64,000 nt of DNA, taken from Actinomycetes bacterium (GTDB taxonomy: Bacteria > Actinomycetota > Actinomycetes > S36-B12). Location: the NCBI GenBank assembly GCA_965278965.1, contig OZ257127.1, positions 39,159 to 103,158 of the forward strand, read 5' to 3'. The notes under the pieces were generated by a model that was not told the origin of the DNA, did no database searches, and was given only the letters and a program-made list of their open reading frames with translations. This document shows, piece by piece, positions 9,347 to 22,041 of the stretch. How positions within the stretch are numbered: position 1 is the first letter of the stretch; the number at the start of each line of letters is the position of its first letter. Both the position numbers and the translations under genes were made by a program.

Positions 9347-9438
9347 CGGTCAGCCTCCGAACAGCCGGGTCGGTGTTCGATCGATCGCTCGGGGTACTGA
9401 ACGGCGCCGCACTCGGGGCAGCGAGGCCACGTCGTCAT
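9343..9438 (-). CDS. Small Cys-containing peptide (31 aa)
   Basis: MTTWPRCPECG...HRPGC; ATGA-coupled on both sides, GGAGG upstream. Confidence 0.5.
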   Translation of the reverse strand: MTTWPRCPECGAVQYPERSIEHRPGCSEADR

Positions 9439-10004
9439 GACGCCTCCACGTGCACGCGTCGGTTCTGCTCGGGGAGCTGGCAGCAGCCGGGCGTGAACGG
9501 GTGTGCGGCGAGCGGGAGAGGATGATCTTCTGAGCCCGTCGGGGCGGAGCCACCCGACGTGGCGCCCGGTATGGCCTTGGTAAGGCCTTGGTGGGTTGCA
9601 GCGGGCCGCCACCGTTGCTGTCGAATATTGCCGCCGTTAGCGTCGGATATTGCCGCCGTTGACCCTGTGACACCGGCACTCTGCTGCCGCCGTTGATCCC
9701 CTGACACCGGCACTGGAGTGCCACCGTCGGGGATCGTGAGTCGGTACGTCCGAGCTCGGCCGGGTGCCGTTGGGATGCCGTCCCACTCGATCAGCCCGGC
9801 GACCCTCAGTGCGTTCACCATGGCTCGGGTCTGACGGTCAGCAAGGCCCGCCATGTGGGCCATGCGCGCGGTGCCGGCACGCATGTTCTCGCCGGTCGCA
9901 TAGTCGGCGTGCGTCGACATCACGAGCGCCACGGCCTTGGCCGAGCTCGGGACGTCTGTCCGAGCGACGGCCTCGAGCCAGTCGAGTACGAATGTCCGCG
10001 GCAC
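9435..10004 (-). CDS. Putative replication initiator (N-terminal winged HTH)
   Basis: AKAVALVMSTHAD...RMAHMAGLADRQTRAMVNALRVAGLI...RTYRL; internal DNA repeats as in lambda-O-like initiators. Confidence 0.65.
   Translation of the reverse strand: MPRTFVLDWLEAVARTDVPSSAKAVALVMSTHADYATGENMRAGTARMAHMAGLADRQTRAMVNALRVAGLIEWDGIPTAPGRARTYRLTIPDGGTPVPVSGDQRRQQSAGVTGSTAAISDANGGNIRQQRWRPAATHQGLTKAIPGATSGGSAPTGSEDHPLPLAAHPFTPGCCQLPEQNRRVHVEAS
9607..9728. repeat. Iteron-like array inside the rep gene
   Basis: (t)gcc(g/a)ccgt(t) at 9607, 9629, 9651, 9685, 9719 (spacing 22, 22, 34, 34). Confidence 0.65.
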
Positions 10005-10007
10005 ACG

Positions 10008-10250
10008 TCACCGCCCCCGACGGAATCGGAGGGCGCGACTCATCTCGTCCCTGAGCCGCTTAGCCCGCCCCGGGTGCTCGGACCGGCCACGCCAGATCGC
10101 ATTCAGGTGGTACCGCGGGTAGTCGGGGAACTGACGTCGGATCTCCGCGACGTCGAGCTCGGACTTGGCCGCGTAGACGCCGGGCGGAACCATCGCCGGC
10201 TCGTGCTCGCACGCGAGTGCGTCAACACAGTCGGCGGCCAGGCCGCCCAC
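10008..10250 (-). CDS. Hypothetical protein
   Basis: 80-aa ORF filling the gap between the HTH and rep genes. Confidence 0.5.
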   Translation of the reverse strand: MGGLAADCVDALACEHEPAMVPPGVYAAKSELDVAEIRRQFPDYPRYHLNAIWRGRSEHPGRAKRLRDEMSRALRFRRGR

Positions 10251-10251
10251 G

Positions 10252-10458
10252 TCACCCAGCCTTCGGGGGAGTGATGCCGTTCGACTGAGAGATCCACGCG
10301 GCGACGGTGCCGCGTGAGTAGCGGACGGCCTGGCCGATCTTCACGCCGCGTGGTCCGACGCCACGCTTACGCCAGTCCCGAACGGTTTCCGGGCTGACCT
10401 TGAGCTCGGCGGCGAGCTCGACGGTGGTTAGCCATTCATCGTTGGTGGTCACGGACAC
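10252..10458 (-). CDS. AlpA/excisionase-like HTH regulator
   Basis: WLTTVELAAELKVSPETVRDWRKRGVGPRGVKIGQAVRY; AGGGAGG RBS before GTG 10458. Confidence 0.88.
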   Translation of the reverse strand: MSVTTNDEWLTTVELAAELKVSPETVRDWRKRGVGPRGVKIGQAVRYSRGTVAAWISQSNGITPPKAG

Positions 10459-10570
10459 TGCCGCCTCCCTGTGTTCACGGGCGCATCTATTGCGCTCCCC
10501 ACAGAATCCCCGTACGGTGCCGCAGTAGCAAGAAATCAATACCCCGTCTAAACCCCCAATCGAAAGGGAT

Positions 10571-11383
10571 TTGATGCCTGAGCCGAAGGTCAGGTGGGAA
10601 GCCAAGTTCCCGGAGGTCGTCGGGCCGGCCGTTCGAGTCCAGGTCGTGGCCGAGTTCCCGGATGAGGCGGGCGCAAACTTCGAAATGGATCAGCCGATAC
10701 CCGCGCTGGAGCTAGCGATGTGGAGCGTGGATCAGTCGGGAACGGCTGGACTTACCCTTCACGACGACCCAGCCGGACCGGCGACGCATCGCGTGATGGT
10801 CGAGTGGAAGGGAGTCAGCTCCGGCATCGCGTTCACGAGCGTCACCCTGGTTACCGAACCCGCAGGCGAGCCGATCGACGGCGCCACACTTGGCGAGGTC
10901 GCTGCGAAGTTCGAGCAGTGGTCCGCTGCCCTGCAATCGAAGATCCTCGTCGAGGTTGCGACGCAAAGGCAGAGCTTCTCGATCTCGTTTCCTCACTTCT
11001 CGATCTCGATCGAGAAGGGTGCGGCGACTCTCACGATGGGCGATCGAGTCGCGCACGGTCGCGGCACGCTCCGGTTTGTCGTCGAAGAATCGACGCTCGC
11101 TGGAATGGAGGTCGAGCTCGCCCGACGACAGCGCCTCCAGCTCACCGACGACGACTATCGCGAGGTTGCCAGGGTGTACGCCGATGCCGTGGAGCGTGGC
11201 GCGCCGGTCCTGGCAACGGTTGGTCGAATGTTTGGGGGCGCGAACACCGGCAGCAAGGCGCAGGCGGCGAACCGCAAGCGAGCTGAGCGCTGGATCGCCG
11301 AAGCGAGGTCCCGCGGCTATATCGCCAAGCGCGCACCTGGGCGTCCTGCGAAGAAGCCACCGTCGGCAAAGGAGGTTCGATGA
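10571..11383 (+). CDS. Putative repressor/regulator with C-terminal HTH (DUF6214-like)
   Basis: LTDDDYREVARVYADA...AERWIAEARSRGYI; divergent from the AlpA-like gene, coupled to the integrase. Confidence 0.65.
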   Translation: MMPEPKVRWEAKFPEVVGPAVRVQVVAEFPDEAGANFEMDQPIPALELAMWSVDQSGTAGLTLHDDPAGPATHRVMVEWKGVSSGIAFTSVTLVTEPAGEPIDGATLGEVAAKFEQWSAALQSKILVEVATQRQSFSISFPHFSISIEKGAATLTMGDRVAHGRGTLRFVVEESTLAGMEVELARRQRLQLTDDDYREVARVYADAVERGAPVLATVGRMFGGANTGSKAQAANRKRAERWIAEARSRGYIAKRAPGRPAKKPPSAKEVR

Positions 11384-12540
11384 CCGTCACCGACCGCTGG
11401 CACAGCAGCACGGGGGAGCAGTCCACGGAGTACGGACGCGGCCGACGGTGGCTCGTGCGCTACCGGGATCCGCAGGGCAAGCAGCGCTCGCGTTCGTTCG
11501 ATCGCAAGGCGCAGGCGGACGCCTATGACCTACGGGTGCGCGGCCAGGTCGTCGAGAGCACGTACGTCGACCCGTCCGCCGGCAAGGTCACGTTCGGGGA
11601 GTACGCGCAGGCGTGGCTCGCGTTGCAGACGCACTGGCGGCCGTCGACCCGTCGCAGCCAAGAGCAGATGGTGAAGCTCCGGATGGTTCCGCACATCGGC
11701 ATGACGCCGCTGCGGGTGCTGAACCGCTCGCAGGTGCAGGCGATGGTGAACGCCTGGCGGACCGACTACGCCGCGGCCACGGTCACCACGACGTTCTCGT
11801 GCCTGCGGACGATCCTCGCGTCGGCGATCGACGACAAGGTGATCGCGACCGACCCGTCGACCAAGATCAAGGTCCCGACGCCGCCGCGTCGTCGTGACGT
11901 CCACCTGAGCCACGAGCAGGTGGCGACGATCCTCGGAACCGCCAAGCCCGAGCTGCGACCGTTCTTCGCGTCGCTGGCGTGGTGTGGGCTGCGGCTGGGG
12001 GAGTCGCTGGGGCTCGACGTCGCGGACGTCGACTTCCTGACCGCGACGCTGACCGTGCGCCGGCAGATGGACACCGAGGACCCGGCGGGTCGGATCGTGC
12101 CGTTCACCAAGACCGACGCGGGTCGACGCGAGGTTCCGGTGCCGCCTGAGCTCACCGCGATGTGCTCGGCGTTCCTGGCCGCTCGACGCCGCGCGGACGG
12201 ATCGCTCGAGGGCACGCACCTGTGGCAGGCGCCGAGCGGCGCCCGGCTACTGCGGACGGTCGTCGACACCGAAGTCCGCCGGATTGAACGGCGCACGGGC
12301 ATCACGTTCTCGCCCCACCACCTGCGGCACTACTACGGGGCCAGCCTGATCTCGGCTGGCGTGCCCGTTCCGCAGGTCGCCAAGCAGATGGGCCACGCCA
12401 GCCCACAGGTGACCATGCGCGTGTACGCCTACGCGATGAAGGACGACGCCGACAAGGGTCGCGCAGCCGTCGCAGCGCTCGCCGGCCTCTCTGCGCCATG
12501 TGCACCGGATGTGCACCGGACCGTGGCGGTGAGCAAATGA
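11380..12540 (+). CDS. Tyrosine recombinase / phage integrase
   Basis: Catalytic GLRLGE (R), TKT (K), HHLRH (HxxR), MGH, VYAY (Y); N-terminal WLVRYRDPQGKQRSRSF arm-binding domain. Confidence 0.96.
   Translation: MTVTDRWHSSTGEQSTEYGRGRRWLVRYRDPQGKQRSRSFDRKAQADAYDLRVRGQVVESTYVDPSAGKVTFGEYAQAWLALQTHWRPSTRRSQEQMVKLRMVPHIGMTPLRVLNRSQVQAMVNAWRTDYAAATVTTTFSCLRTILASAIDDKVIATDPSTKIKVPTPPRRRDVHLSHEQVATILGTAKPELRPFFASLAWCGLRLGESLGLDVADVDFLTATLTVRRQMDTEDPAGRIVPFTKTDAGRREVPVPPELTAMCSAFLAARRRADGSLEGTHLWQAPSGARLLRTVVDTEVRRIERRTGITFSPHHLRHYYGASLISAGVPVPQVAKQMGHASPQVTMRVYAYAMKDDADKGRAAVAALAGLSAPCAPDVHRTVAVSK
12499..12519 (+). repeat. Candidate integrase arm-type site (tandem TGTGCACC)
   Basis: tgtgcaccggatgtgcaccgg, matches 2879-2899. 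Confidence 0.7.
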
Positions 12541-12575
12541 CACGGGTGTCTGCCCTGGTCAGGCGGCACATTGGT

Positions 12576-12603
12576 GCTGCGTGCCCCGGGTGGGATTCGA
12601 ACC
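12576..12603. repeat. att core, right copy (within the intact tRNA)
   Basis: Identical to 2747-2774. Confidence 0.93.
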
Positions 12604-12655
12604 CACACTGGACGGTGTTTGAGACCGCTTCCTCTGCCGGTTGGGATACCGGGGC
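12582..12655 (-). tRNA. tRNA-Leu(CAA), short variable arm, CCA not encoded
   Basis: Acceptor GCCCCGG/CCGGGGC-A; anticodon arm GCGGT-CT-CAA-AC-ACCGT; T loop GGTTCGAATCC. Confidence 0.93.
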
Positions 12656-12708
12656 GCGGTCAACCAGAGTAGTCGGGCCGCCGCCGCGGCGCCCGTAGGC
12701 TGACCGGC

Positions 12709-13329
12709 ATGAGCGCCGCGCGGTCCACGGCCCCCGGGGTCGACCCCGTTCCGGTCACCGTGCTGGTCGCCGAGGATGAGGCCCTCATCCGGATGGATCT
12801 CGTGGAGCTGTTGGGGGAGTGCGGGTACGAGGTCGTCGCCCAGGTCGGCGACGGCCAGGCCGCGGTCGAGCAGGCGCGGGCGTTGCGCCCCGACGTCGTG
12901 CTCATGGATGTGGCGATGCCGCGCCGTGATGGCCTGTCCGCTGCGGAGGAGATCCTCGCGGAGCAGATTGCCCCGGTCGTCATGGTCACCGCCTTCGCCC
13001 AGCGCGACACGGTGGAGCGAGCGACCAGCGCCGGCGTGCTCGGCTACCTCGTCAAGCCGTTCGGCAAGGCCGACATCACGCCGGCGATCGAGGTCGCCGT
13101 CGCCCGGTGGCGCCAGCTCGTTCTCCTCACGGAGCAGGCCGCGAGTCTGCGCGAGCGCCAGGCCGCGCGTGAGGTGGTCGACCGGGCCAAGCGGATGCTG
13201 GAGCAGCGCCTCGGGCTGACCGAGCCCGACGCGTTCTCGTGGCTGCGTCGGGCCGCCATGGACGGTCGGATCACGCTGGCCGAAGCCGCCGCGGCCGCGC
13301 TCGCCGATCCGCCCCAGGCCCCGGGTTAG
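12709..13329 (+). CDS. pdtaR: ANTAR-domain response regulator (PdtaR/Rv1626-like)
   Basis: Receiver AEDEALIRMDL, DVAMP, YLVKPF; ANTAR VDRAKRML...AFSWLRRAAMD. Confidence 0.85.
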   Translation: MSAARSTAPGVDPVPVTVLVAEDEALIRMDLVELLGECGYEVVAQVGDGQAAVEQARALRPDVVLMDVAMPRRDGLSAAEEILAEQIAPVVMVTAFAQRDTVERATSAGVLGYLVKPFGKADITPAIEVAVARWRQLVLLTEQAASLRERQAAREVVDRAKRMLEQRLGLTEPDAFSWLRRAAMDGRITLAEAAAAALADPPQAPG

Positions 13330-13370
13330 AGTGGCCAGAACCCCGCCCGCGACCCACCATCGGAGCGCTC

Positions 13371-14762
13371 ATGCCACGCGCGCACGCGCTACGGGCAGTC
13401 TCGGCGCTCGTCGCGGTGGCCGCCCTCGCGCTCGCTGCATGCTCGTCACCGGGCGCCTCGCCTGATCCCAGCCGCGGCGTCCCGCAGCTGACGGACCCAG
13501 CGGCGACCGCCTCGTCGGCGCCCATGCCCAGCGCAGTCCCGACCGCGTCCCTCACGCCGAACGTCCCCCTCTACCTCGTCGACGTGAACACCACTGACGA
13601 GCTGGGCGCCGAGCTTCCGCTCGGCATCCTCACCGGCGTCAAGGGGACGATCCCGGGCGGCGAGGTGCCGGCGCCGTTCCGCGACGCCCTGGCCCAGGTG
13701 GACCCCACGCTCACGTCAGACGCCTACGCGGCCGAGGCGTACGACGCCACGATCCTCGCTGCACTCGGCGCCGCAGCCTCGTCCTCGGACGCCGGCCGCG
13801 ACATCGCGGCCGAGCTCGCCCCGCTGACGAACGGCGACACGGTCTGCACCGACTTCGCCGAGTGCCGTGACCTGGTCGCGGGCGGGACGTCGATCGCCTA
13901 CCAGGGCCGGGCCGGCGCTCTGCGCCTCTCGGCGTCGGGTGAACCGACGCAGTCGACCGTCGGGGTCTACACGTTCGGCTCGGACAACCGGCTCCTCGCC
14001 GACGTCGACTACGCCGATGTCCAGATCCAGCCCGGCAAGGTCGCCGCTCCGCGCGAGGCGAAGGTCCAGGCCGGCGCGGGCGACAAGGTCCTGACGATCG
14101 GCACGCTGCTGGCCGCAGGCGGGAGCCTGTCGTTCATGCGACCCGCTCAGCTCGCCGGCGTCCAACTGGCCGTCCGTGACATCCAGGCCGCCGGCGGGCT
14201 CCCCGGGTTCGACCGCATCGCGGTCATCGACGCCGATGCCGGCGACGGCACCGTGGAGGACGCGTCGATCGGCATGGATGAGCTGATCGCCAGCAAGGCC
14301 GACGTCGTCATCGGGACCGGGGCGATGACGTCGACCGGGGGCGTCGTTCCGCAGGCGGTCAAGGCCGGGATCCTCCTCCTGGCTCCCGTGAACGGGGCGC
14401 TCACACCGATCACCAACGCCTACGACGGTCTGTACTGGCGGATGTCGCCTTCCGGGCTGGCCCAGGGGGCCTTCCTCGGGTCGCTCGTGGTCGAGGACGG
14501 CCACACGCGCGTCGCCGTGATCCACTCGGACGACGAGTACGCCTCCAGCCTGGCCCAGGTCGTCGCTTCGTCGGTACCGCAGTCCGGCGGGACCGTCGTG
14601 GCGAACGCCGACTATGACCCGGCCGCCGTCGACTTCGCCGGAGTGGTCGCCAAGGTCAAGAAGGCCAAGCCGGACGCCGTCGTGCTGATCGGCTTCGACG
14701 AGTCGGCGAAGGTCATCTCCGAGCTCGTCCGGCAGGGAATCGGGCCGAACTCGGCCCGATGA
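13371..14762 (+). CDS. Circularly permuted LivK-type ABC substrate-binding lipoprotein
   Basis: LAAC lipobox; the C-terminal half of the canonical fold precedes the N-terminal half relative to 14916-16265. Confidence 0.85.
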   Translation: MPRAHALRAVSALVAVAALALAACSSPGASPDPSRGVPQLTDPAATASSAPMPSAVPTASLTPNVPLYLVDVNTTDELGAELPLGILTGVKGTIPGGEVPAPFRDALAQVDPTLTSDAYAAEAYDATILAALGAAASSSDAGRDIAAELAPLTNGDTVCTDFAECRDLVAGGTSIAYQGRAGALRLSASGEPTQSTVGVYTFGSDNRLLADVDYADVQIQPGKVAAPREAKVQAGAGDKVLTIGTLLAAGGSLSFMRPAQLAGVQLAVRDIQAAGGLPGFDRIAVIDADAGDGTVEDASIGMDELIASKADVVIGTGAMTSTGGVVPQAVKAGILLLAPVNGALTPITNAYDGLYWRMSPSGLAQGAFLGSLVVEDGHTRVAVIHSDDEYASSLAQVVASSVPQSGGTVVANADYDPAAVDFAGVVAKVKKAKPDAVVLIGFDESAKVISELVRQGIGPNSAR

Positions 14763-14915
14763 GGGCCTGCGGGGGACGCGCTGCGCCGCAAGGTCACAGG
14801 TTGGTCACGAACCGCCAACGAAGTCGCTGCGGGTTACCTGTGCGTAACGAAGGGTCGCATAGGCTCCGGCCATTGCGACGGCACCCGTCGTCGCGTCCTT
14901 TCAAGAGGAGACTGC

Positions 14916-16265
14916 ATGAATCGCACCACGGTCCTTAAGACGGCCGCCGTGCTCAGCGTCGCCTCCCTGGCTCTAGCTGCGTGTTCCAGCAGCTCGTCCA
15001 GCGAGTCGACCACCGCCGCTGCAACCAGCGCCGCCGCTTCCGCGGAGGCAACTGCTGCTGCATCGGCATCTGCTGAGGCCACGGCCGCCGCATCGGAGGC
15101 GTGCACCGCGACCGCCCTCAAGCTCGGCACTCTGCTGCCGCAGACGGGCGACCTCGCCTTCCTCGGCCCACCGGAGTTCGCCGGCGTGAAGCTGGCTGTC
15201 GATGAGATCAACGCGGCTGGTGGCGTCAACGGCGCCCCCGTCGAGGAGATCATCGGCGACTCGGGTGACACCACGACCGACATCGCGTCGCAGACGGTGG
15301 ACTCGCAGCTCTCGCAGGGCGTGAGCGCCATCATCGGCGCGGCGTCGTCGGGCGTGTCGCTCACCGTCATCGACAAGATCACGTCGAACGGCGTGATCCA
15401 GATGTCGCCGGCCAACACCTCGCCCGCGCTGACGACCTACCCGGACAACGGCCTGTACTGGCGTGTCGCTCCGTCCGACGCCCTCCAGGGCGCGGTCATC
15501 GCGGACAACGCCATCAACGCCGGCCTGACCAAGATGGCCGTCGTCGCCCGCCAGGACGCGTACGGCGAGGGCCTCGAGGATGCGTTCGCGAAGAACTTCA
15601 CGGACGCCGGTGGAACGGTCACGAGCCAGCTGCTCTACGACCCCGCCGCAACCTCGTTCGAGGCTGAGGTCTCGGAGATCAAGGCCGGCAGCCCGGAGGG
15701 TGTCGTCGTCATCGGCTTCGACGAGACGACCAAGCTCCTCCAGGAGATGATCAAGCAGGGCGTCGGCCCGCAGGACGTCCAGATCTACCTGGTCGACGGC
15801 AACCTGTCGGCGACCGCGTACAAGGACTTCCCGAAGGGCACCATGAAGGGCGTCCTCGGCACGGTCCCGTCGGGCAACAACGACCTGACCGCGTTCAACG
15901 AGTCGCTGAAGACCGTGGACCCGTCGCTGACGGACTACACCTACGGCGCTCAGTCGTACGACGCGGCGATGGTTCTCGCACTTGCGGCTGAGGCTGCCAA
16001 GTGCGCCGACGGCACGGCCATCGCGGCCATGCTGCCGGAGGTCGCCAACACCGGCGGCGAGAAGTGCACGACGTTCGCCGACTGTGTCGCCCTGCTGCAG
16101 GCCGGCACGAAGATCGACTTCGACGGCGTCACCGGCCCGCTGGACTTCAACGAGTTCGGCGATCCGAAGGAGGCCACCATCTCGGTCAACAAGTACGACG
16201 ACAACGAGAAGTGGACCGAGGTCGACAAGGTGACGGCCGAGGTGCCGCTGCCCGACGCCAGCTGA
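14916..16265 (+). CDS. Branched-chain amino acid ABC transporter substrate-binding lipoprotein (LivK-like)
   Basis: LAAC lipobox, LKLGTLLPQTG, AVDEINAAGGVNG, YWRVAPSDALQG. Confidence 0.93.
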   Translation: MNRTTVLKTAAVLSVASLALAACSSSSSSESTTAAATSAAASAEATAAASASAEATAAASEACTATALKLGTLLPQTGDLAFLGPPEFAGVKLAVDEINAAGGVNGAPVEEIIGDSGDTTTDIASQTVDSQLSQGVSAIIGAASSGVSLTVIDKITSNGVIQMSPANTSPALTTYPDNGLYWRVAPSDALQGAVIADNAINAGLTKMAVVARQDAYGEGLEDAFAKNFTDAGGTVTSQLLYDPAATSFEAEVSEIKAGSPEGVVVIGFDETTKLLQEMIKQGVGPQDVQIYLVDGNLSATAYKDFPKGTMKGVLGTVPSGNNDLTAFNESLKTVDPSLTDYTYGAQSYDAAMVLALAAEAAKCADGTAIAAMLPEVANTGGEKCTTFADCVALLQAGTKIDFDGVTGPLDFNEFGDPKEATISVNKYDDNEKWTEVDKVTAEVPLPDAS

Positions 16266-16284
16266 GCACGACCCGCACATAGCG

Positions 16285-16318
16285 CGAAGGCCCCCAGCCA
16301 CACGGCTGGGGGCCTTCG
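16285..16318 (+). terminator. Intrinsic terminator-like hairpin
   Basis: cgaaggcccccagcc-acac-ggctgggggccttcg 15-bp stem after the stop codon. Confidence 0.75.
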
Positions 16319-16348
16319 TGTGTCCGGGACCAGGCGCCCCCCAACCTC

Positions 16349-16407
16349 GCCACCTTGCCGTTTCAGGCCGCATCTCGGCGATATGCGGCCTGAAACGGCA
16401 AGGTGGC
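16349..16407. repeat. 25-bp perfect inverted repeat (REP-like hairpin A)
   Basis: gccaccttgccgtttcaggccgcat / atgcggcctgaaacggcaaggtggc. Confidence 0.9.
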
Positions 16408-16422
16408 TAAGTAGGCGAGCGC

Positions 16423-17343
16423 TCAGCTGCGTGGGCTCCAGCCAGCCTTTCGCAGCATCGGCCCGACCACGCCAGGGATCCGATCCACCGTGTAGGTGTC
16501 CTCCCACGCGAACCTCAGCAGGACAGCACGAGCCCGCGCCTGCATCACGTTCTGTCGATGGCGATCGGCGAGAAGCGCGTCCGGCAGTTGGTGGATGCTC
16601 CGGCCATCGAACTCGACGATGAGCCAGCTCCCGTCTGGCAGTTCGTAGCCGATATCGCCGTAGCCGGCGAGAGACCCGGTTTCGGTCCGCACGGGAACTT
16701 GGAGCGAGTCCGGTGGCAGACCCGCGTCTTCGAGGATGAGGCGGACACGGGTCTCGCCCGGGGATTGCGAACCCTCTCGTGCTCGGTCCAGGCTCGCCCG
16801 GCCAGTGCGGCAGCCGCGCAGGCCCGCCATCGACGCTCGGATGTCCGGCAGGTCGTCGACGCCGATCATGCGTTGGTCGAGCGCGGAGTCGACCAGGCAC
16901 ACCGCCTGGACGGGTGGGAGCAGGCGACAGACGTCCGCCAGCGTGCGGGCCACGCTGGTCGTCGGCAGGTCGGCGACGTGGACGACGTGCTCTTGGGGCA
17001 GGTCCCACACCCGTAGCTCCATCCCGGGCCGCTGCCGCCGTTCCAGGCCCGGCGGCAAAGCTGCCTGTGGGACCCAGGACGCCGGGAGTCCCTGAAGGCG
17101 GTGGAGGCGTGCGGCCGATCCCAGCACCGCCACTGCCTGGTCGCCGAGGTGTGCGAGTACGGCGCGAATCTCGGCGTGCTCGTCATTGACGTCATGTACG
17201 CGATACACGCCGCGGAACGGGCGCTCTATGTGCCCGCGGTCGGCTTGGCGCTGGAGCTGTGTTCGGGTCAGCCCGAGGTGGGCCGCGTCAGCTGCCCGCA
17301 CGAGGCCGTGCTTGTCGGTGATGGGTCGCTTGGGCGGTCGCAT
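16423..17343 (-). CDS. AbiEi-like N-terminal domain plus DUF559/Vsr-like nuclease domain protein
   Basis: HGLVRAADAAHLGL...RPFRGVY, TTSVARTLAD, SPGETRVRL, IVEFDGRSIH, DRHRQN..LRFAWED. Confidence 0.85.
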   Translation of the reverse strand: MRPPKRPITDKHGLVRAADAAHLGLTRTQLQRQADRGHIERPFRGVYRVHDVNDEHAEIRAVLAHLGDQAVAVLGSAARLHRLQGLPASWVPQAALPPGLERRQRPGMELRVWDLPQEHVVHVADLPTTSVARTLADVCRLLPPVQAVCLVDSALDQRMIGVDDLPDIRASMAGLRGCRTGRASLDRAREGSQSPGETRVRLILEDAGLPPDSLQVPVRTETGSLAGYGDIGYELPDGSWLIVEFDGRSIHQLPDALLADRHRQNVMQARARAVLLRFAWEDTYTVDRIPGVVGPMLRKAGWSPRS

Positions 17344-17432
17344 TCGACAAGGGTCAACGTGATCGGCGGCGGCGCGCGGCCCCGCGGATGTCCTGTGGAC
17401 GCTGACCGTGAGCGGGCGGTTCTGTGCGCCTT

Positions 17433-17495
17433 CGCCGACCTTGGGGTTTCAGGCCCCATCCGGGCCACATGAGGCCTGAAACCCCAAGGTCGGCG
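17433..17495. repeat. 23-bp perfect inverted repeat (REP-like hairpin B)
   Basis: cgccgaccttggggtttcaggcc / ggcctgaaaccccaaggtcggcg; homologous to hairpin A. Confidence 0.9.
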
Positions 17496-17505
17496 GGTGG
17501 GGCGG

Positions 17506-18377
<872 letters not shown>

Positions 18378-18381
<4 letters not shown>

Positions 18382-19280
18382 GCGCCCCCTCCATCCGTGG
18401 TCAGCGACTCGCCGGACTCCGTCAGGGCCTTGTCGTGGTGCGAGCCGAGGTACGCGTCGATGACGGCGCTGTTCGCCATGACGGCCGACGGCGGGCCCTC
18501 GGCGATGATCTGCCCCTGGGCCATCACGATCACCCAGTCGCTGATGTCGTGGACCATGTCCATGTCGTGCTCGACGAACAGGACGGTCGCGCCCTCCTCA
18601 CGCATCCCCTTGATGTGCCGCAGGAGGCTCTGGGTCAGCGCCGGGTTCACGCCCGCCATCGGCTCGTCGAGCATGATCAGCTCGGGGTCGGTCATGAGCG
18701 CGCGGGCCATCTCCAGGAGCTTGCGCTGGCCGCCGGAGAGGGAACCCGCGTAGTCGTCCTGCTTGGGCAGCATCGAGAACCGCTCCAGCAGCACCCGCGC
18801 GCGGGCCGTGACGGCGTCCTCCTGCTTGCGCCACAGGAACGGAAGCGCCGACGCCCAGACCCGTTCGCCGCGCTGGCCGCGAGCCCCCAGACGCATGTTG
18901 TCGAGGACGGACATGCGACTGAGCGCCTTGGTCAGCTGGAACGTACGGACCATGCCCAGCCGGGCGACCTTGTGCGGGGCGACGCCGGCGAGCGGCGTGC
19001 CGTTGAACGTCCAGTCACCGCTGTCGGGGGAGTCGAATCCCGTGAGCAGGTTGAAGAACGTCGTCTTGCCCGCACCGTTCGGGCCGATGAGCGCAGTGAT
19101 CGACCCGCGCTGCACCTCGACGTGGGCGACGTCGACCGCCGCGAGACCGCCGAAGCGCCGAACGACGTCGTCGGCGATGACGATCGGGTCCGGCTTGGGG
19201 ACGCCTGGGGTGTGCGGCACGTCGGCCAGTGCCGAGACGGCCGCTTGTGCGCGCGGGCCGGAGCCTTCGCTATCGACCAT
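18378..19280 (-). CDS. livG: BCAA ABC transporter ATP-binding protein
   Basis: GPNGAGKTT, RTFQ, LSGGQRKLLE, VEHDM. Confidence 0.92.
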
Positions 19281-20256
19281 CGAGAGCCAGCTCCTTCCGG
19301 TCGCCGAAGATGCCTTGCGGTCTGAAGATCATCAGGAGCATCAGGCCGAGGCCGACGAGGATGAAGCGAATGGGGCCGACGTCGGTGGGCTGCAGGAAGT
19401 CGATCCAGCCCGCCTTGATCATCTGGTTGAGGAACTCCCCGACGAAGACGAGAAGGAACCAGAAGATGATCGCGCCGGCGATCGGGCCGAAGACGCGGGC
19501 GGCCCCGCCGAGCAGCACGATCGTGTAGGCGAAGAACGTGACGTCGGGGACGAAGTTGTCCGGCTGCACGGACTGCTTCGCCACGGCCCAGACGATGCCG
19601 CCCATCGCGCCGAGCATGCCGCCGAGGACGAGGGCCTGCATCTTGTACCAGTACGTGTTCTTGCCGAGCGACACCACAGCGTGCTCGTCCTCGCGGATGC
19701 CGCGGATGACGCGGCCCCACGGGCTGCGCACGAGCAGCCACACGCCCAGGGTCAGGACGGCGACGAGGACCCAGCCCACGGTCGCGACCCACAGGTCCTG
19801 CCGGGTGAAGGCCAGGAACGGCAGGCTGATGTCCTGCGGGAACGGGTTGAGGTCGTGGAACTCCTGGCCCATCTTCCCGTTGATGCCGTTGACGCCGCCG
19901 AAGGTGTCACGCAGGGCGATGGAGCGGACGACGAGCCGGATGATCTCGCTGGCGGCGATCGTGACGATCGCGAGGTAGTCCGCACGTAGTCGGAGGGTGG
20001 GGATGCCGAGGATGAGCGCGAGGACGACCGAGCCGAGCAGGCTGACCAGGATCGCCAGCCACAGGTTCAGCCCCATCGTCACGACGATGACGCCGACGCC
20101 ATAGGCGCCCACCGCGACGAACGCGACCTGGCCGAAGTTGAGCAGGCCGGTGTAGCCGAACTGCATGTTCACGCCCATGGCGGCCAGGCAGTAGATGATC
20201 GCGGTGACGCCGATGGCCTGGGTGACGGCCTGGCTGAACACGAACGAGAGGTCCAT
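19270..20256 (-). CDS. livM: BCAA ABC transporter permease
   Basis: GYTGLLNFGQ, LRLRADYLAIVT, SPWGRVIRGIREDE. Confidence 0.92.
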   Translation of the reverse strand: MDLSFVFSQAVTQAIGVTAIIYCLAAMGVNMQFGYTGLLNFGQVAFVAVGAYGVGVIVVTMGLNLWLAILVSLLGSVVLALILGIPTLRLRADYLAIVTIAASEIIRLVVRSIALRDTFGGVNGINGKMGQEFHDLNPFPQDISLPFLAFTRQDLWVATVGWVLVAVLTLGVWLLVRSPWGRVIRGIREDEHAVVSLGKNTYWYKMQALVLGGMLGAMGGIVWAVAKQSVQPDNFVPDVTFFAYTIVLLGGAARVFGPIAGAIIFWFLLVFVGEFLNQMIKAGWIDFLQPTDVGPIRFILVGLGLMLLMIFRPQGIFGDRKELALDGR

Positions 20257-20259
20257 CGG

Positions 20260-21537
20260 CTATCCCACCCTCTCGCGTCGACCGAGGATGCCCTGCGGGC
20301 GGACCAGCAGGATGACGATCATGAGGAACAGCGCGCCGACCGTCTTCATCTCTGTCGGGATGAAGAGCGTGGAGAGCTGGATGAACAGGCCGACGACGAG
20401 TGCGCCGACCAGTGCGCCGTAGATGGTGCCGAGGCCGCCGAGCGTGACGGCCGCGAACATCACCAGCAGCAGGCGCTGGCCCATGTTCCAGGAGACATCC
20501 TGCGTGAGTCCGAGGTAGATGCCGGCGACCGCCGCCAGGCCGGCCCCGAGCGTCCACACCACCGAGATGACGCGCTCGACGTCGATACCGGTTGCAGACG
20601 CGAGTGCCGGGTTGTCGGACACCGCGCGGGTGGCCTTGCCGATGCGGGACCGCTGCAGCCACAGAACGGTCGCCGTCAGCAGGATGATCGCGACGACCGC
20701 CAGGATGATCGCCTTGGGCGTGATGCTGACGGAGCCGATCGTCAGGCCTGCCTGGCCGGCGAACTGCTCGTAGCTGCGCGGGGACCCCTTGAACAGCAGC
20801 AGCATCGTGTACCGCAGCGTGATCGCCAGGCCGATCGTGATGACCATGCTCGCGATGAGCCCGGTGCGGCGACGGCGCAGCGGGCGCCACAGGATCCGGT
20901 TCTGACCCCAGCCCCACAGGACTGCGCTGATGACGACGGCGATCGGCGCGGCAATGATGATGTTGAGGCCGAGCTCGTTCAGGACGATGGCGGTGAACGC
21001 GCCGAGGGTGAGCAGCTCGCCGTGCGAGAAGTTGGTCAGTCCGGTGGTGCCGAAGATGAGGTTCAGGCCGACAGCGCCGAGCGCGATGAGGATGCCCAGC
21101 AGCAGGCCGTCGACGACGAGCTGGGGGATCTGGCTGGTGCCGGTCCCGTCGGTGGCCGTTCCGGAGTTCGTCTCACCGCCGGCGCCGAGGTTGAACAGGA
21201 TCCGTTTCGTCCCGGACAGGACGTTGACCGTGCGCGTGGCCTCGTCGGGGTTGGCTAGCGAGACCCCGTCCGGCAGAGTCGACTCGTCGATGGCAACGGT
21301 GTAGGTGCCGGCCTTCGGGATCGTCACCGAGAAGGTGCCGTCTGCCCCGGACGTGGCGGCCTGGCTGAAGCTGTCGGCGCTGACTGTGACGACGACGCCG
21401 GCGACGGGCTTGCCGTCCGGGGTCTTCAGCGTGCCCGTGATGGCTGTGTCCGCTGCTTGGGCGCCGGGCGCGAACAGGGCGCTGAGGGCGATCAGCAGAG
21501 CGGCCAGGAGCCCGAGGCCCGTCAGGCGCTGCCGCAT
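20260..21537 (-). CDS. livH: BCAA ABC transporter permease with N-terminal extracellular beta-sandwich domain
   Basis: GLNLIFGTTGLTNFSHGE, GKATRAVSDN; signal peptide and ITGTLKTPDGKPVAGV domain. Confidence 0.9.
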   Translation of the reverse strand: MRQRLTGLGLLAALLIALSALFAPGAQAADTAITGTLKTPDGKPVAGVVVTVSADSFSQAATSGADGTFSVTIPKAGTYTVAIDESTLPDGVSLANPDEATRTVNVLSGTKRILFNLGAGGETNSGTATDGTGTSQIPQLVVDGLLLGILIALGAVGLNLIFGTTGLTNFSHGELLTLGAFTAIVLNELGLNIIIAAPIAVVISAVLWGWGQNRILWRPLRRRRTGLIASMVITIGLAITLRYTMLLLFKGSPRSYEQFAGQAGLTIGSVSITPKAIILAVVAIILLTATVLWLQRSRIGKATRAVSDNPALASATGIDVERVISVVWTLGAGLAAVAGIYLGLTQDVSWNMGQRLLLVMFAAVTLGGLGTIYGALVGALVVGLFIQLSTLFIPTEMKTVGALFLMIVILLVRPQGILGRRERVG

Positions 21538-21639
21538 CCGGTCCCTCTCCTCCTACGCCGCCGGCCCGTCGCCCGCCTCGCGTTCGCGGCAGCATAGCCA
21601 CGAAAACGACGGCATTGCGTCGGTTGCGTAAACGCCAGG

Positions 21640-22041
21640 CTACGCCGACCGGATGAGGCAGGTGAGCCTTCCGGTGCAGACCGCGCGACCCTCGCCGTCG
21701 GTGATCTTGACCTCGTAGGAAGTGATAGTCCGGCCGAGCGACAGGGGTTCGGCGACGGCCGTCACGACACCCTCACGGACCCCGCGATGGTGGGTGCACG
21801 AGATGTCGAGGCCGACGACCGCCTTGCCGGGACCGGCGTGCACGGCGGCGCCGATCGACCCGGCGGTCTCCACGAGGACCGCGCTGGCGCCGCCGTGGAG
21901 CAGCCCGAAGGGCTGCGTGTTGCCCGCGACCGGCATCGTCATGACGACCCGCTGCGGCGAGACCTCGACAATCGTGATCCCCATGGTGGCGGCCAGGTCG
22001 CCCACCGGGACGAGCTCCGGCGGCACAGCATCGGATGTCAT
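21640..22041 (-). CDS. PaaI/hotdog-fold thioesterase
   Basis: NTQPFGLLHGGASAVLVET. Confidence 0.92.
   Translation of the reverse strand: MTSDAVPPELVPVGDLAATMGITIVEVSPQRVVMTMPVAGNTQPFGLLHGGASAVLVETAGSIGAAVHAGPGKAVVGLDISCTHHRGVREGVVTAVAEPLSLGRTITSYEVKITDGEGRAVCTGRLTCLIRSA

Follow-up and report, generated by a model that had tools for sequence, protein, structure and literature searches.

The window analysed here is a 64,000-nucleotide stretch of high-GC DNA from an actinobacterium of the S36-B12 lineage (assembly GCA_965278965.1, contig OZ257127.1, positions 39,159 to 103,158), in which the list of open reading frames (ORFs) and their translations place two LivJ/LivK-type lipoprotein genes on the same strand. 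The downstream gene codes for P0002, which has the canonical chain order: an N-terminal two thirds (block A) followed by a C-terminal part (block B). The upstream gene codes for P0001, which we confirmed to be a clean circular permutant of this type, with block B ahead of block A. The B-A proteins are a conserved actinobacterial family. We consider it probable that this family is a functional, permuted version of the LivJ type, that P0001 is a retained and re-specified copy, and that the order originated through repeated fusion and truncation.

The chain of P0001 is circularly permuted

The alignment of P0001 with P0002 by BLASTP gave two offset diagonals, one pairing residues 241-463 with P0002 residues 68-289 (36% identity, E 4e-43) and the other pairing residues 64-219 with P0002 residues 287-443 (36% identity, E 1e-21). 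In this alignment the last residue of P0001 faces P0002 residue 289, and the first residue of its block B faces residue 287, so the break is exact to about three residues. The Pfam family Peripla_BP_6 (PF13458) covers P0002 from profile position 2 to 311, and in P0001 it matches positions 2-216 of 343 at residues 241-458 (E 4.3e-26). The swapped order, the near-exact break point and the start positions of the two blocks (V65 at 13563 and L241 at 14091) had already been proposed from the sequence alone, and all of them are borne out by the offset diagonals and the half-covered profile. P0001 is thus homologous over both lobes to the LivJ/LivK family (Peripla_BP_6, Type I / Cluster B) but departs from its collinear chain order. 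In current annotation the B-A proteins appear under the name of ordinary ATP-binding cassette (ABC) binding proteins, and Pfam extends over just half of each.

AlphaFold2 models of both proteins were built on family alignments. The model of P0001 has a predicted local distance difference test score (pLDDT) of 83.2 and a predicted template modelling score (pTM) of 0.80, with residues 1-62 disordered; the values for P0002 are 85.7 and 0.82. As read from the lists of elements, the main helices and strands of the two models follow the same order after rotation. The break point falls, in the P0002 model, in the loop that follows the helix at 271-280 and leads into the strand at 289-293, and strand 1 comes to lie in the middle of the P0001 chain, at residue 240. 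Foldseek and VIA-align searches of the PDB placed about 200-240 positions within residues 235-463 of P0001 on canonical LivJ-type chains, in their N-terminal part (Z 12-15.4), and no collinear full-length match was present among the matches listed. A sequence search of the PDB likewise matched P0001 to canonical chains only, and through block A only. All sequence and structure matches listed for P0001 are LivJ/LivK-type or related receptors. P0002 is collinear with solved Leu/Ile/Val-binding proteins, such as 4n0q over query residues 68-371.

P0001 has an export signal and a lipid anchor of the kind found in Gram-positive binding proteins. In an alignment of 72 B-A sequences, the lipobox cysteine (C24 in P0001, C23 in P0002) is invariant and A22 and A23 are nearly so; D71, the Asp of the YLVD strand that P0001 keeps, is invariant, as are the disulfide-type pair C159/C165, many Gly and Pro residues, and G235, A236 and D238 of the linker. 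The equivalent of D71 in P0002 is D294, which the alignment with leucine-bound 4n0q pairs with the Glu of a G-E-G motif, a residue that binds the amino group of the ligand in LivJ.

The possibility that the order is an artefact of assembly or gene calling is already contradicted by the data, and we give it practically no weight. The genome that holds the window is a single contig of 3.68 Mb. In two runs, Logan contigs (5.3 and 15.4 kb) extend across the region and agree with it without a single difference (X3 record 9 over 12600-16500, X1 record 3 over 12630-16500), which upholds the assembly against the earlier concern about misassembly. These two runs come from one sample, maybe the source of the window, and amount to a re-assembly rather than independent data. 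The B-A order is also found in 103 of the 119 matches listed for P0001 (the other 16 are A-B) and in dozens of separate assemblies, and we found no positive evidence for an artefact. Runs X6 to X21 contain only small shares of the window. In run X5, a freshwater metatranscriptome, contigs match the P0002 gene over about 14946-16102 and almost none of P0001; some of them show 0-1 differences over 155-215 nt, which indicates near-identical sequence in the library and is not proof of transcription or of a ranking of the two genes.

Permuted proteins are a conserved family in actinobacteria

A B-A match at E<=1e-50 was found in 33 of the 390 genomes of the order, confined to three of its 50 genera. 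Within the genus of the window, 29 of the 32 genomes have one (G000 left out), and at E<=1e-10 most genomes of the genus match P0001 only once; this is so for G010 and G020, each a single contig, where the one match is in B-A order. The permutant is stable, as the sequence-only reading had supposed, and the homologs in this order that it had suggested searching for make up most of the matches listed. Two same-genus genomes show other arrangements: G023 carries a canonical A-B gene only (57% identical to P0002), and G017 carries a B-A gene together with a distant canonical gene (47%) on another contig.

We compared 80 loci, 79 from a scan of one genome per species plus the window. Of these, 35 have a B-A gene only and three more a B-A gene split over two ORFs, so the B-A protein is the sole binding-protein gene beside the transporter in 38 of 80. 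Another 36 loci have an A-B gene only, one has an A-B gene split over two ORFs, one has a fragment, and four (the window, L021, L045 and L053) have a B-A gene followed by an A-B gene. Within the genus, a small subclade shares this pair of genes with the window genome. B-A and A-B loci share a common plan: a gene for a REC-ANTAR regulator, the binding-protein gene, convergent LivF-LivG-LivM-LivH genes and, often, a gene for a 4HBT thioesterase. Among the 38 B-A-only loci, 31 have a convergent LivF gene downstream, L044 has LivG-M-H instead, and the other six stop at a contig edge. A REC-ANTAR gene precedes the binding-protein gene in 27 of these 38 loci, and also in most A-B-only loci, so that the position downstream of an ANTAR regulator, noted earlier for P0001, is right and is kept with either chain order. 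In L053, which is on the same contig as L019 in genome G006, no ANTAR gene was detected at the coverage cut-off between an integrase and the B-A gene, where the gap is about 450 nt.

The motifs AASSG, SPANTS, DxYG and YLVDGN are common to B-A-only and canonical proteins. Because the B-A-only proteins keep these ligand motifs and are the sole binding proteins at their loci, we infer that they work as the binding proteins of their Liv importers and deliver amino acids to LivHM as the canonical ones do. A role outside transport, one of two suggestions made from the sequence alone, thus seems unlikely for the family. The other, a new ligand, seems plausible for the small subclade that holds P0001 and for that subclade only.

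Origin of the permuted order

The ends of the B-A proteins mark the break point closely. In both close clades the proteins end 1-4 residues past GIGPN and start just ahead of PLYLVDGN; across the same point, the canonical protein of L087 reads GIGPN, two residues, PLYLVDGN. The linker of the B-A proteins resembles the canonical C-terminal tail joined to the canonical G-D-G segment that precedes strand 1.

A profile search of 1.84 billion cluster representatives returned 1506 matches at E<=1e-30, and the best 150 were sorted by hidden Markov models (HMMs) of the two blocks. Among these 150, the order is A-B in 103 and B-A in 36; four are A-B-A-B, four have block A only, one has block B only and two have repeated A blocks. 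The four A-B-A-B proteins (P0244, P0308, P0345 and P0352) are 813-1034 residues long and contain two full Peripla_BP_6 units. In single-block trees, the two halves of each are mutual nearest relatives; support in the separate block-A and block-B trees is too weak to tell where these halves belong with respect to the B-A proteins. P0244 stands for a cluster of 17 members found on many contigs, one of them a RefSeq protein whose 3.57 Mb genome bears the name Candidatus Poriferisocius sp. In P0345 there is an additional C-terminal YceI-like domain.

The B-A module also occurs within longer proteins, after a Ser/Thr kinase domain in P0251 and P0283 and after a Bmp/PnrA-type binding protein in P0269 and P0302. 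Where looked up, these four belong to clusters of 1-2 members, and the Bmp cases may be gene-call fusions. P0278 (1943 residues) and P0382 (3020 residues) show five and seven repeated block-A matches, respectively, and no block B at the coverage cut-off.

Two breakpoint classes were distinguished among the 37 B-A rows, that is, the 36 representatives and P0001. Class 1 comprises 22 sequences that resemble P0001. Class 2 comprises 15 sequences that start about 20 residues later and keep the YGVDGN strand at the C-terminus; P0251 was moved to it from class 1 by hand, on the basis of its C-terminal tail. On the broad tree, the starred branches imply at least five changes for class 1 and two for class 2. 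Approximately unbiased (AU) tests rejected a single clade for all 37 B-A rows (log-likelihood difference 259, p 1.2e-5) and for the 22 class-1 rows (log-likelihood difference 154, p 0.0039). These trees suggest that several independent origins of the B-A order are likely, although not proven. A route by duplication, fusion and truncation is plausible because of the composition of the linker and the existence of natural A-B-A-B fusions. This route had been proposed earlier, with the adjacent P0002 gene as its implied starting point; the route itself holds up as plausible, and the origin from P0002 does not, given the separate clades described below.

Placement of P0001, P0002 and the LivFGMH genes

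In a tree of the re-ordered blocks (110 rows), P0001 belongs to a subclade on long branches (0.34 and 0.44) within the B-A clade, and P0002 to a separate canonical clade. The idea that P0002 is the parent or the recent duplicate source of P0001 is therefore not supported. A recent origin of the B-A gene in this genome, by tandem duplication of the adjacent canonical gene followed by fusion and truncation, would account for two genes that are adjacent on the same strand 153 nt apart, and for a break that matches almost exactly. However, P0001 and P0002 are only 36% identical, block A of typical B-A proteins is nearer to P0002 (about 52-56%) than that of P0001, P0001 is nested among B-A proteins from loci without a canonical neighbour, and the B-A gene stands alone in most genomes of the genus. 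We regard such a recent local origin as very improbable.

The transporter genes also point to different histories. The LivM and LivH of the window are 56-59% and 51-55% identical, respectively, to those of same-genus loci with a B-A gene only, no closer than to Nocardioides or Mycobacteriales loci. Close canonical loci came from a metagenome scan with P0002: L107, L109 and L113, which have an A-B gene only, are 81-82% identical to the window in LivM, 73-74% in LivH, 64-69% in ANTAR and 62% in the thioesterase. In a concatenated LivMHGF tree that includes them, the window is nested in a canonical clade (Shimodaira-Hasegawa-like approximate likelihood ratio test (SH-aLRT) support 99-100), and the AU test on this enlarged set rejected a grouping of the window Liv genes with the same-genus B-A-only set (log-likelihood difference 354, p 6e-108). 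The ANTAR flank of the window groups with the same genus, at weak support (81-91). P0002-type canonical proteins are found in 11 of the 16 genera of the family and in 5 of the 32 genomes of the genus of the window, and the LivHM type that accompanies the same-genus B-A genes is absent from the window genome.

Together, these phylogenies show that P0002 and LivFGMH agree with each other and with the canonical systems in other genera of the family, so that they form one coherent system, and that P0001 lacks its co-evolved permease type. P0002 travels with LivFGMH genes of a lineage other than the one found with same-genus B-A genes, a second reason why the parentage that had been ascribed to it is not borne out. 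The printed signal peptides of the same-genus B-A-only proteins closely resemble P0002-type ones, and in the second B-A clade the resemblance is to canonical proteins from other lineages, a pattern that points to recombination within a conserved locus.

Selection on P0001 and its pocket

Pairwise NG86 estimates of the ratio of non-synonymous to synonymous substitution rates (dN/dS) are 0.35-0.42 among the P0001 orthologues of the window, L045 and L053, and 0.12-0.23 among the A-B proteins of the same pairs. For the window with L045, L053, L021 and L103 the ratio is 0.13-0.17 for LivF and 0.09-0.18 for LivG; it is 0.11-0.17 for LivM with L045, L053 and L021, and 0.11 for ANTAR with L045. In the window-L045 pair, dN is 0.25 for P0001 and 0.05 for P0002, so that P0001 changes about five times faster at non-synonymous sites. 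The ratio is nevertheless one of purifying selection, the outcome that the sequence-only reading had made a point to check, and the ORF is intact in homologues that are 61-82% identical to P0001. Purifying selection on P0001 is therefore supported.

The pocket segments that had been quoted as different between the two proteins do differ, as the comparison of motifs shows. P0001 and its six closest relatives lack the canonical ligand motifs of the subfamily listed above. In this group of seven sequences they are replaced by FMRPA, G.GA(M/T)T, PVN, mostly YASSL, and YLVD(V/I)N, and the replacements are common to members whose identity to P0001 is only 61-82%; in L021, the changes to the B-A partner are milder. 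We read this pattern as a release of constraint after P0001 became redundant, followed by selection for what may be a new pocket. On this basis P0001 is probably a second binding protein with altered specificity.

An alternative is that P0001 is a decaying relic which, redundant beside a canonical binding protein and its matching LivFGMH, is losing its ligand site and is now functionless. Its high dN relative to P0002 in the same pair of genomes, a dN/dS two to three times that of its neighbours, the loss of the canonical AASSG, SPANTS and DGN, the long branches that lead to its subclade and a signal peptide that varies among the window, L045 and L053 would all be expected of a relic. However, the ORF is intact in seven distinct sequences and in every DNA copy examined, its dN/dS lies well under 1, the replacement motifs are conserved inside the subclade, the lipobox Cys, the C159/C165 pair and many Gly and Pro residues are invariant, and the AlphaFold2 model is confident. 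We think it unlikely that P0001 is such a relic.

It could also be imagined that P0001 is an extracytoplasmic sensor instead of a transport partner, for example in a signalling pathway tied to the adjacent REC-ANTAR gene. B-A modules are C-terminal domains of the Ser/Thr protein kinases P0251 and P0283, so other proteins do use this topology for sensing; the genome has no LivHM of the co-evolved type; the REC-ANTAR gene is directly upstream; and AmiC, the LivJ-fold partner of the ANTAR protein AmiR, is among the structural matches of VIA-align (PDB 1qo0, 1pea and 1qnl; Z 13.8-13.9). Nevertheless, the lipoprotein signal of P0001 rules out direct contact with a cytoplasmic ANTAR protein, the adjacency to REC-ANTAR is equally kept with canonical binding proteins and is not specific to the permutant, and no kinase or chemoreceptor is present among the genes annotated from 12709 to 22041. 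We consider a sensor role quite unlikely, and an altered transport partner remains our preferred reading of P0001.

Features of the locus

Table 1 Features of the P0001-P0002 locus, with positions counted from the first letter of the window
Feature	Position	Strand	Evidence
REC + ANTAR response regulator (PdtaR-like architecture), directly upstream of P0001	12709..13329	+	Pfam Response_reg E 2.1e-26, ANTAR E 4.5e-14
P0001, circularly permuted (B-A) LivJ/LivK-type lipoprotein binding protein, 463 residues	13371..14762	+	BLASTP, Pfam, AlphaFold2
P0001 signal peptide and lipobox to Cys24	13371..13442	+	N-terminus comparison, B-A alignment
P0001 Pro/Ser/Ala-rich tether, residues 25-63, predicted disordered	13443..13559	+	pLDDT <50 at residues 1-62
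P0001 block B, residues 64-219, canonical C-terminal part; begins at the strand with invariant Asp71	13560..14027	+	BLASTP to P0002 287-443
P0001 linker, residues 220-240, from old C-terminus to old N-terminus	14028..14090	+	B-A alignment, composition
P0001 block A, residues 241-463 and stop, canonical N-terminal two thirds; ends 4 residues past GIGPN	14091..14762	+	BLASTP to P0002 68-289, Pfam, VIA-align
P0002, canonical (A-B) LivJ/LivK-type lipoprotein binding protein, 449 residues	14916..16265	+	Pfam Peripla_BP_6, PDB alignment
ORF of 306 residues with AbiEi_4 antitoxin-type N-terminal domain, between P0002 and livF, outside the transporter	16423..17343	-	Pfam AbiEi_4 E 3.8e-10
LivF-type ABC ATPase	17506..18381	-	Pfam ABC_tran and BCA_ABC_TP_C
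LivG-type ABC ATPase	18378..19280	-	Pfam ABC_tran and BCA_ABC_TP_C
LivM-type permease, sole close copy in the genome	19270..20256	-	Pfam BPD_transp_2
LivH-type permease with additional N-terminal CarboxypepD_reg-like domain	20260..21537	-	Pfam BPD_transp_2 141-410, CarboxypepD_reg 33-86
4HBT-family thioesterase, conserved right flank of the locus, same position in many related loci	21640..22041	-	Pfam 4HBT

A GGAG lies 7 nt upstream of the P0001 ATG, and the ribosome-binding site AAGAGGAG precedes the P0002 ATG. The 153-nt spacer between them folds no better than its shuffles (z -0.42), an Rfam scan of the whole window at gathering thresholds returned two tRNAs only and no ANTAR-target or other RNA family, and a promoter and terminator consensus scan of 12500-17600 found none. 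A search of the window's own genome gave only two other LivM matches, at 26% and 32% identity. In LivH, the CarboxypepD_reg-like (beta-sandwich) domain precedes BPD_transp_2, and related loci match the protein from about residue 24-44 on.

To the left of the ANTAR gene (window 9435-12655) there are a tyrosine integrase at 11380-12540 (Phage_integrase with SAM-like and central domains), an HTH_17 excisionase-like ORF at 10252-10605 and a tRNA-Leu(CAA) at 12581-12655 on the minus strand, and this region looks like an integrated element at a tRNA. Integrases at the matching position of other loci are 89% identical in L053/L019 and 59% identical in L015/L023.

Proposed explanation and the points against it

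According to the explanation that we favour, P0001 would be a lipid-anchored, two-lobed "Venus flytrap" protein of the LivJ/LivK type, which binds branched-chain or hydrophobic amino acids, with the order of its chain permuted. After the signal and the tether, the chain enters the fold at the strand that follows the GIGPN loop, carrying the Asp aligned to the Glu of G-E-G, and runs through the old C-terminal part; it then passes through a linker of about 20 residues into the old strand 1 and the old N-terminal two thirds, and stops just past GIGPN. Such an order would most likely arise if a tandem duplicate was fused in frame into A-B-A-B and then lost its first A and last B, leaving B-A, and this fusion and truncation would have happened more than once in the subfamily. 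P0001 would have been kept as a second binding protein, one whose ligand specificity has changed and which docks on the same LivHMGF as P0002.

More tentatively, and with somewhat less than an even chance in our estimation, the LivJ/LivK fold may be a hotspot for permutation around the loop and strand that follow GIGPN. Repeated A-B-A-B fusion with different truncations would then have given, several times independently, working B-A proteins of two breakpoint classes, which serve Liv importers as their sole binding partners and Ser/Thr kinases as sensor domains. The permutant in the window, having lost its own permease, would have acquired a new, conserved pocket and would now supply a different ligand to the transporter of its canonical partner.

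A number of points weigh against these readings. The two models were compared by their element lists, and the changed pocket loops have lower model confidence (pLDDT 67-79 in 10-residue blocks). The raised dN/dS of P0001, together with the loss of its canonical amino-acid-binding motifs, also fits relaxed selection on a redundant gene. The function assigned to the B-A proteins is drawn from synteny and motifs. As for the number of origins, the HMMs used to sort the blocks were built from the B-A/A-B family itself, and one B-A change suffices among the close relatives (branch support 80), so that multiple origins come from the deeper and less certain set of representatives. The trees are quick IQ-TREE searches under LG+G4 or posterior mean site frequency (PMSF) models, and the groups submitted to the AU tests were named after the trees had been seen. 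Finally, a first AU test, on a LivMHGF set that still lacked the close canonical loci, did not reject vertical placement (p 0.159), and the canonical cassette could have been either regained or retained from the ancestor of the family.

If the more tentative of the two readings is true, the permease would work with binding proteins of either chain order. Fold evolution is often studied on periplasmic binding proteins as a model system, and protein biosensors are mainly built on them, with new sites for the chain ends sought by trial. The B-A family would supply functional permutants of natural origin whose break sites are defined, fusion intermediates that still exist, and canonical counterparts from the same locus; with these at hand, the route by duplication, fusion and truncation would become directly testable.

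Comparison with known systems

In E. coli, LivJ and LivK share one LivHMGF transporter. The window is similar in that two paralogous binding proteins with different pockets lie beside one LivHMGF-type importer; it differs in that one of the partners is permuted and of a different lineage than the permeases, and the sharing of the permease is here a presumed one. AmiC of Pseudomonas aeruginosa is a cytoplasmic amide sensor of the LivJ fold that binds the ANTAR antiterminator AmiR directly. Here too, a gene for a LivJ-fold protein lies beside a gene for an ANTAR regulator; however, P0001 and P0002 have lipoprotein export signals and adjoin a full ABC importer, and the ANTAR protein has a REC domain. 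We found no literature that treats PdtaR, branched-chain amino acids and ANTAR together.

The closest precedent is TpMglB-2 (Tp0684) of Treponema pallidum, described as the founding circularly permuted Type I binding protein and proposed as "Type Ic / Cluster Bc" (Brautigam et al. 2016, PMC4990184). TpMglB-2 is reported there to bind ligand and change conformation still, homologues of the same topology are reported from other bacteria, and membrane tethering is offered as a possible reason for the topology. Like P0001, it is a natural permutant of a Type I / Cluster B protein and a lipoprotein encoded beside ABC transporter genes. However, it is an MglB-related glucose/galactose binder, whereas P0001 belongs to the LivJ/LivK Peripla_BP_6 group, and the rearrangements differ: the first three strands of the N-lobe (about 70-100 residues) moved to the C-terminus in TpMglB-2, whereas in P0001 about 155 C-terminal residues moved to the N-terminus, with the break after the GIGPN loop. 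TpMglB-2 was absent from the Foldseek and VIA-align matches listed for P0001, although a distant fold match or a permuted structure may exist.

Engineered permutants and permuted halves of periplasmic binding proteins are described for work on biosensors and fold evolution (for example PMC9815098 and PMC6335823). These are laboratory constructs, whereas the B-A proteins are natural, conserved and apparently working partners of transporters. Full-text literature searches, with subscription journals outside their coverage, found no paper on a natural LivJ/LivK-type permutant, and a term search of the main text of the CIRPIN 2026 permutation survey (PMC13552848) returned no periplasmic, solute or ABC-transporter proteins.

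Natural permutation of this fold class is thus already known from TpMglB-2, and what differs here is the subfamily, LivJ/LivK, and the break. Beyond that precedent, the B-A family offers two breakpoint classes, evidence for several origins, and A-B-A-B and kinase-fused forms. Swaps of this kind seem to have emerged repeatedly in actinobacteria, and no description of them was found in the papers searched.

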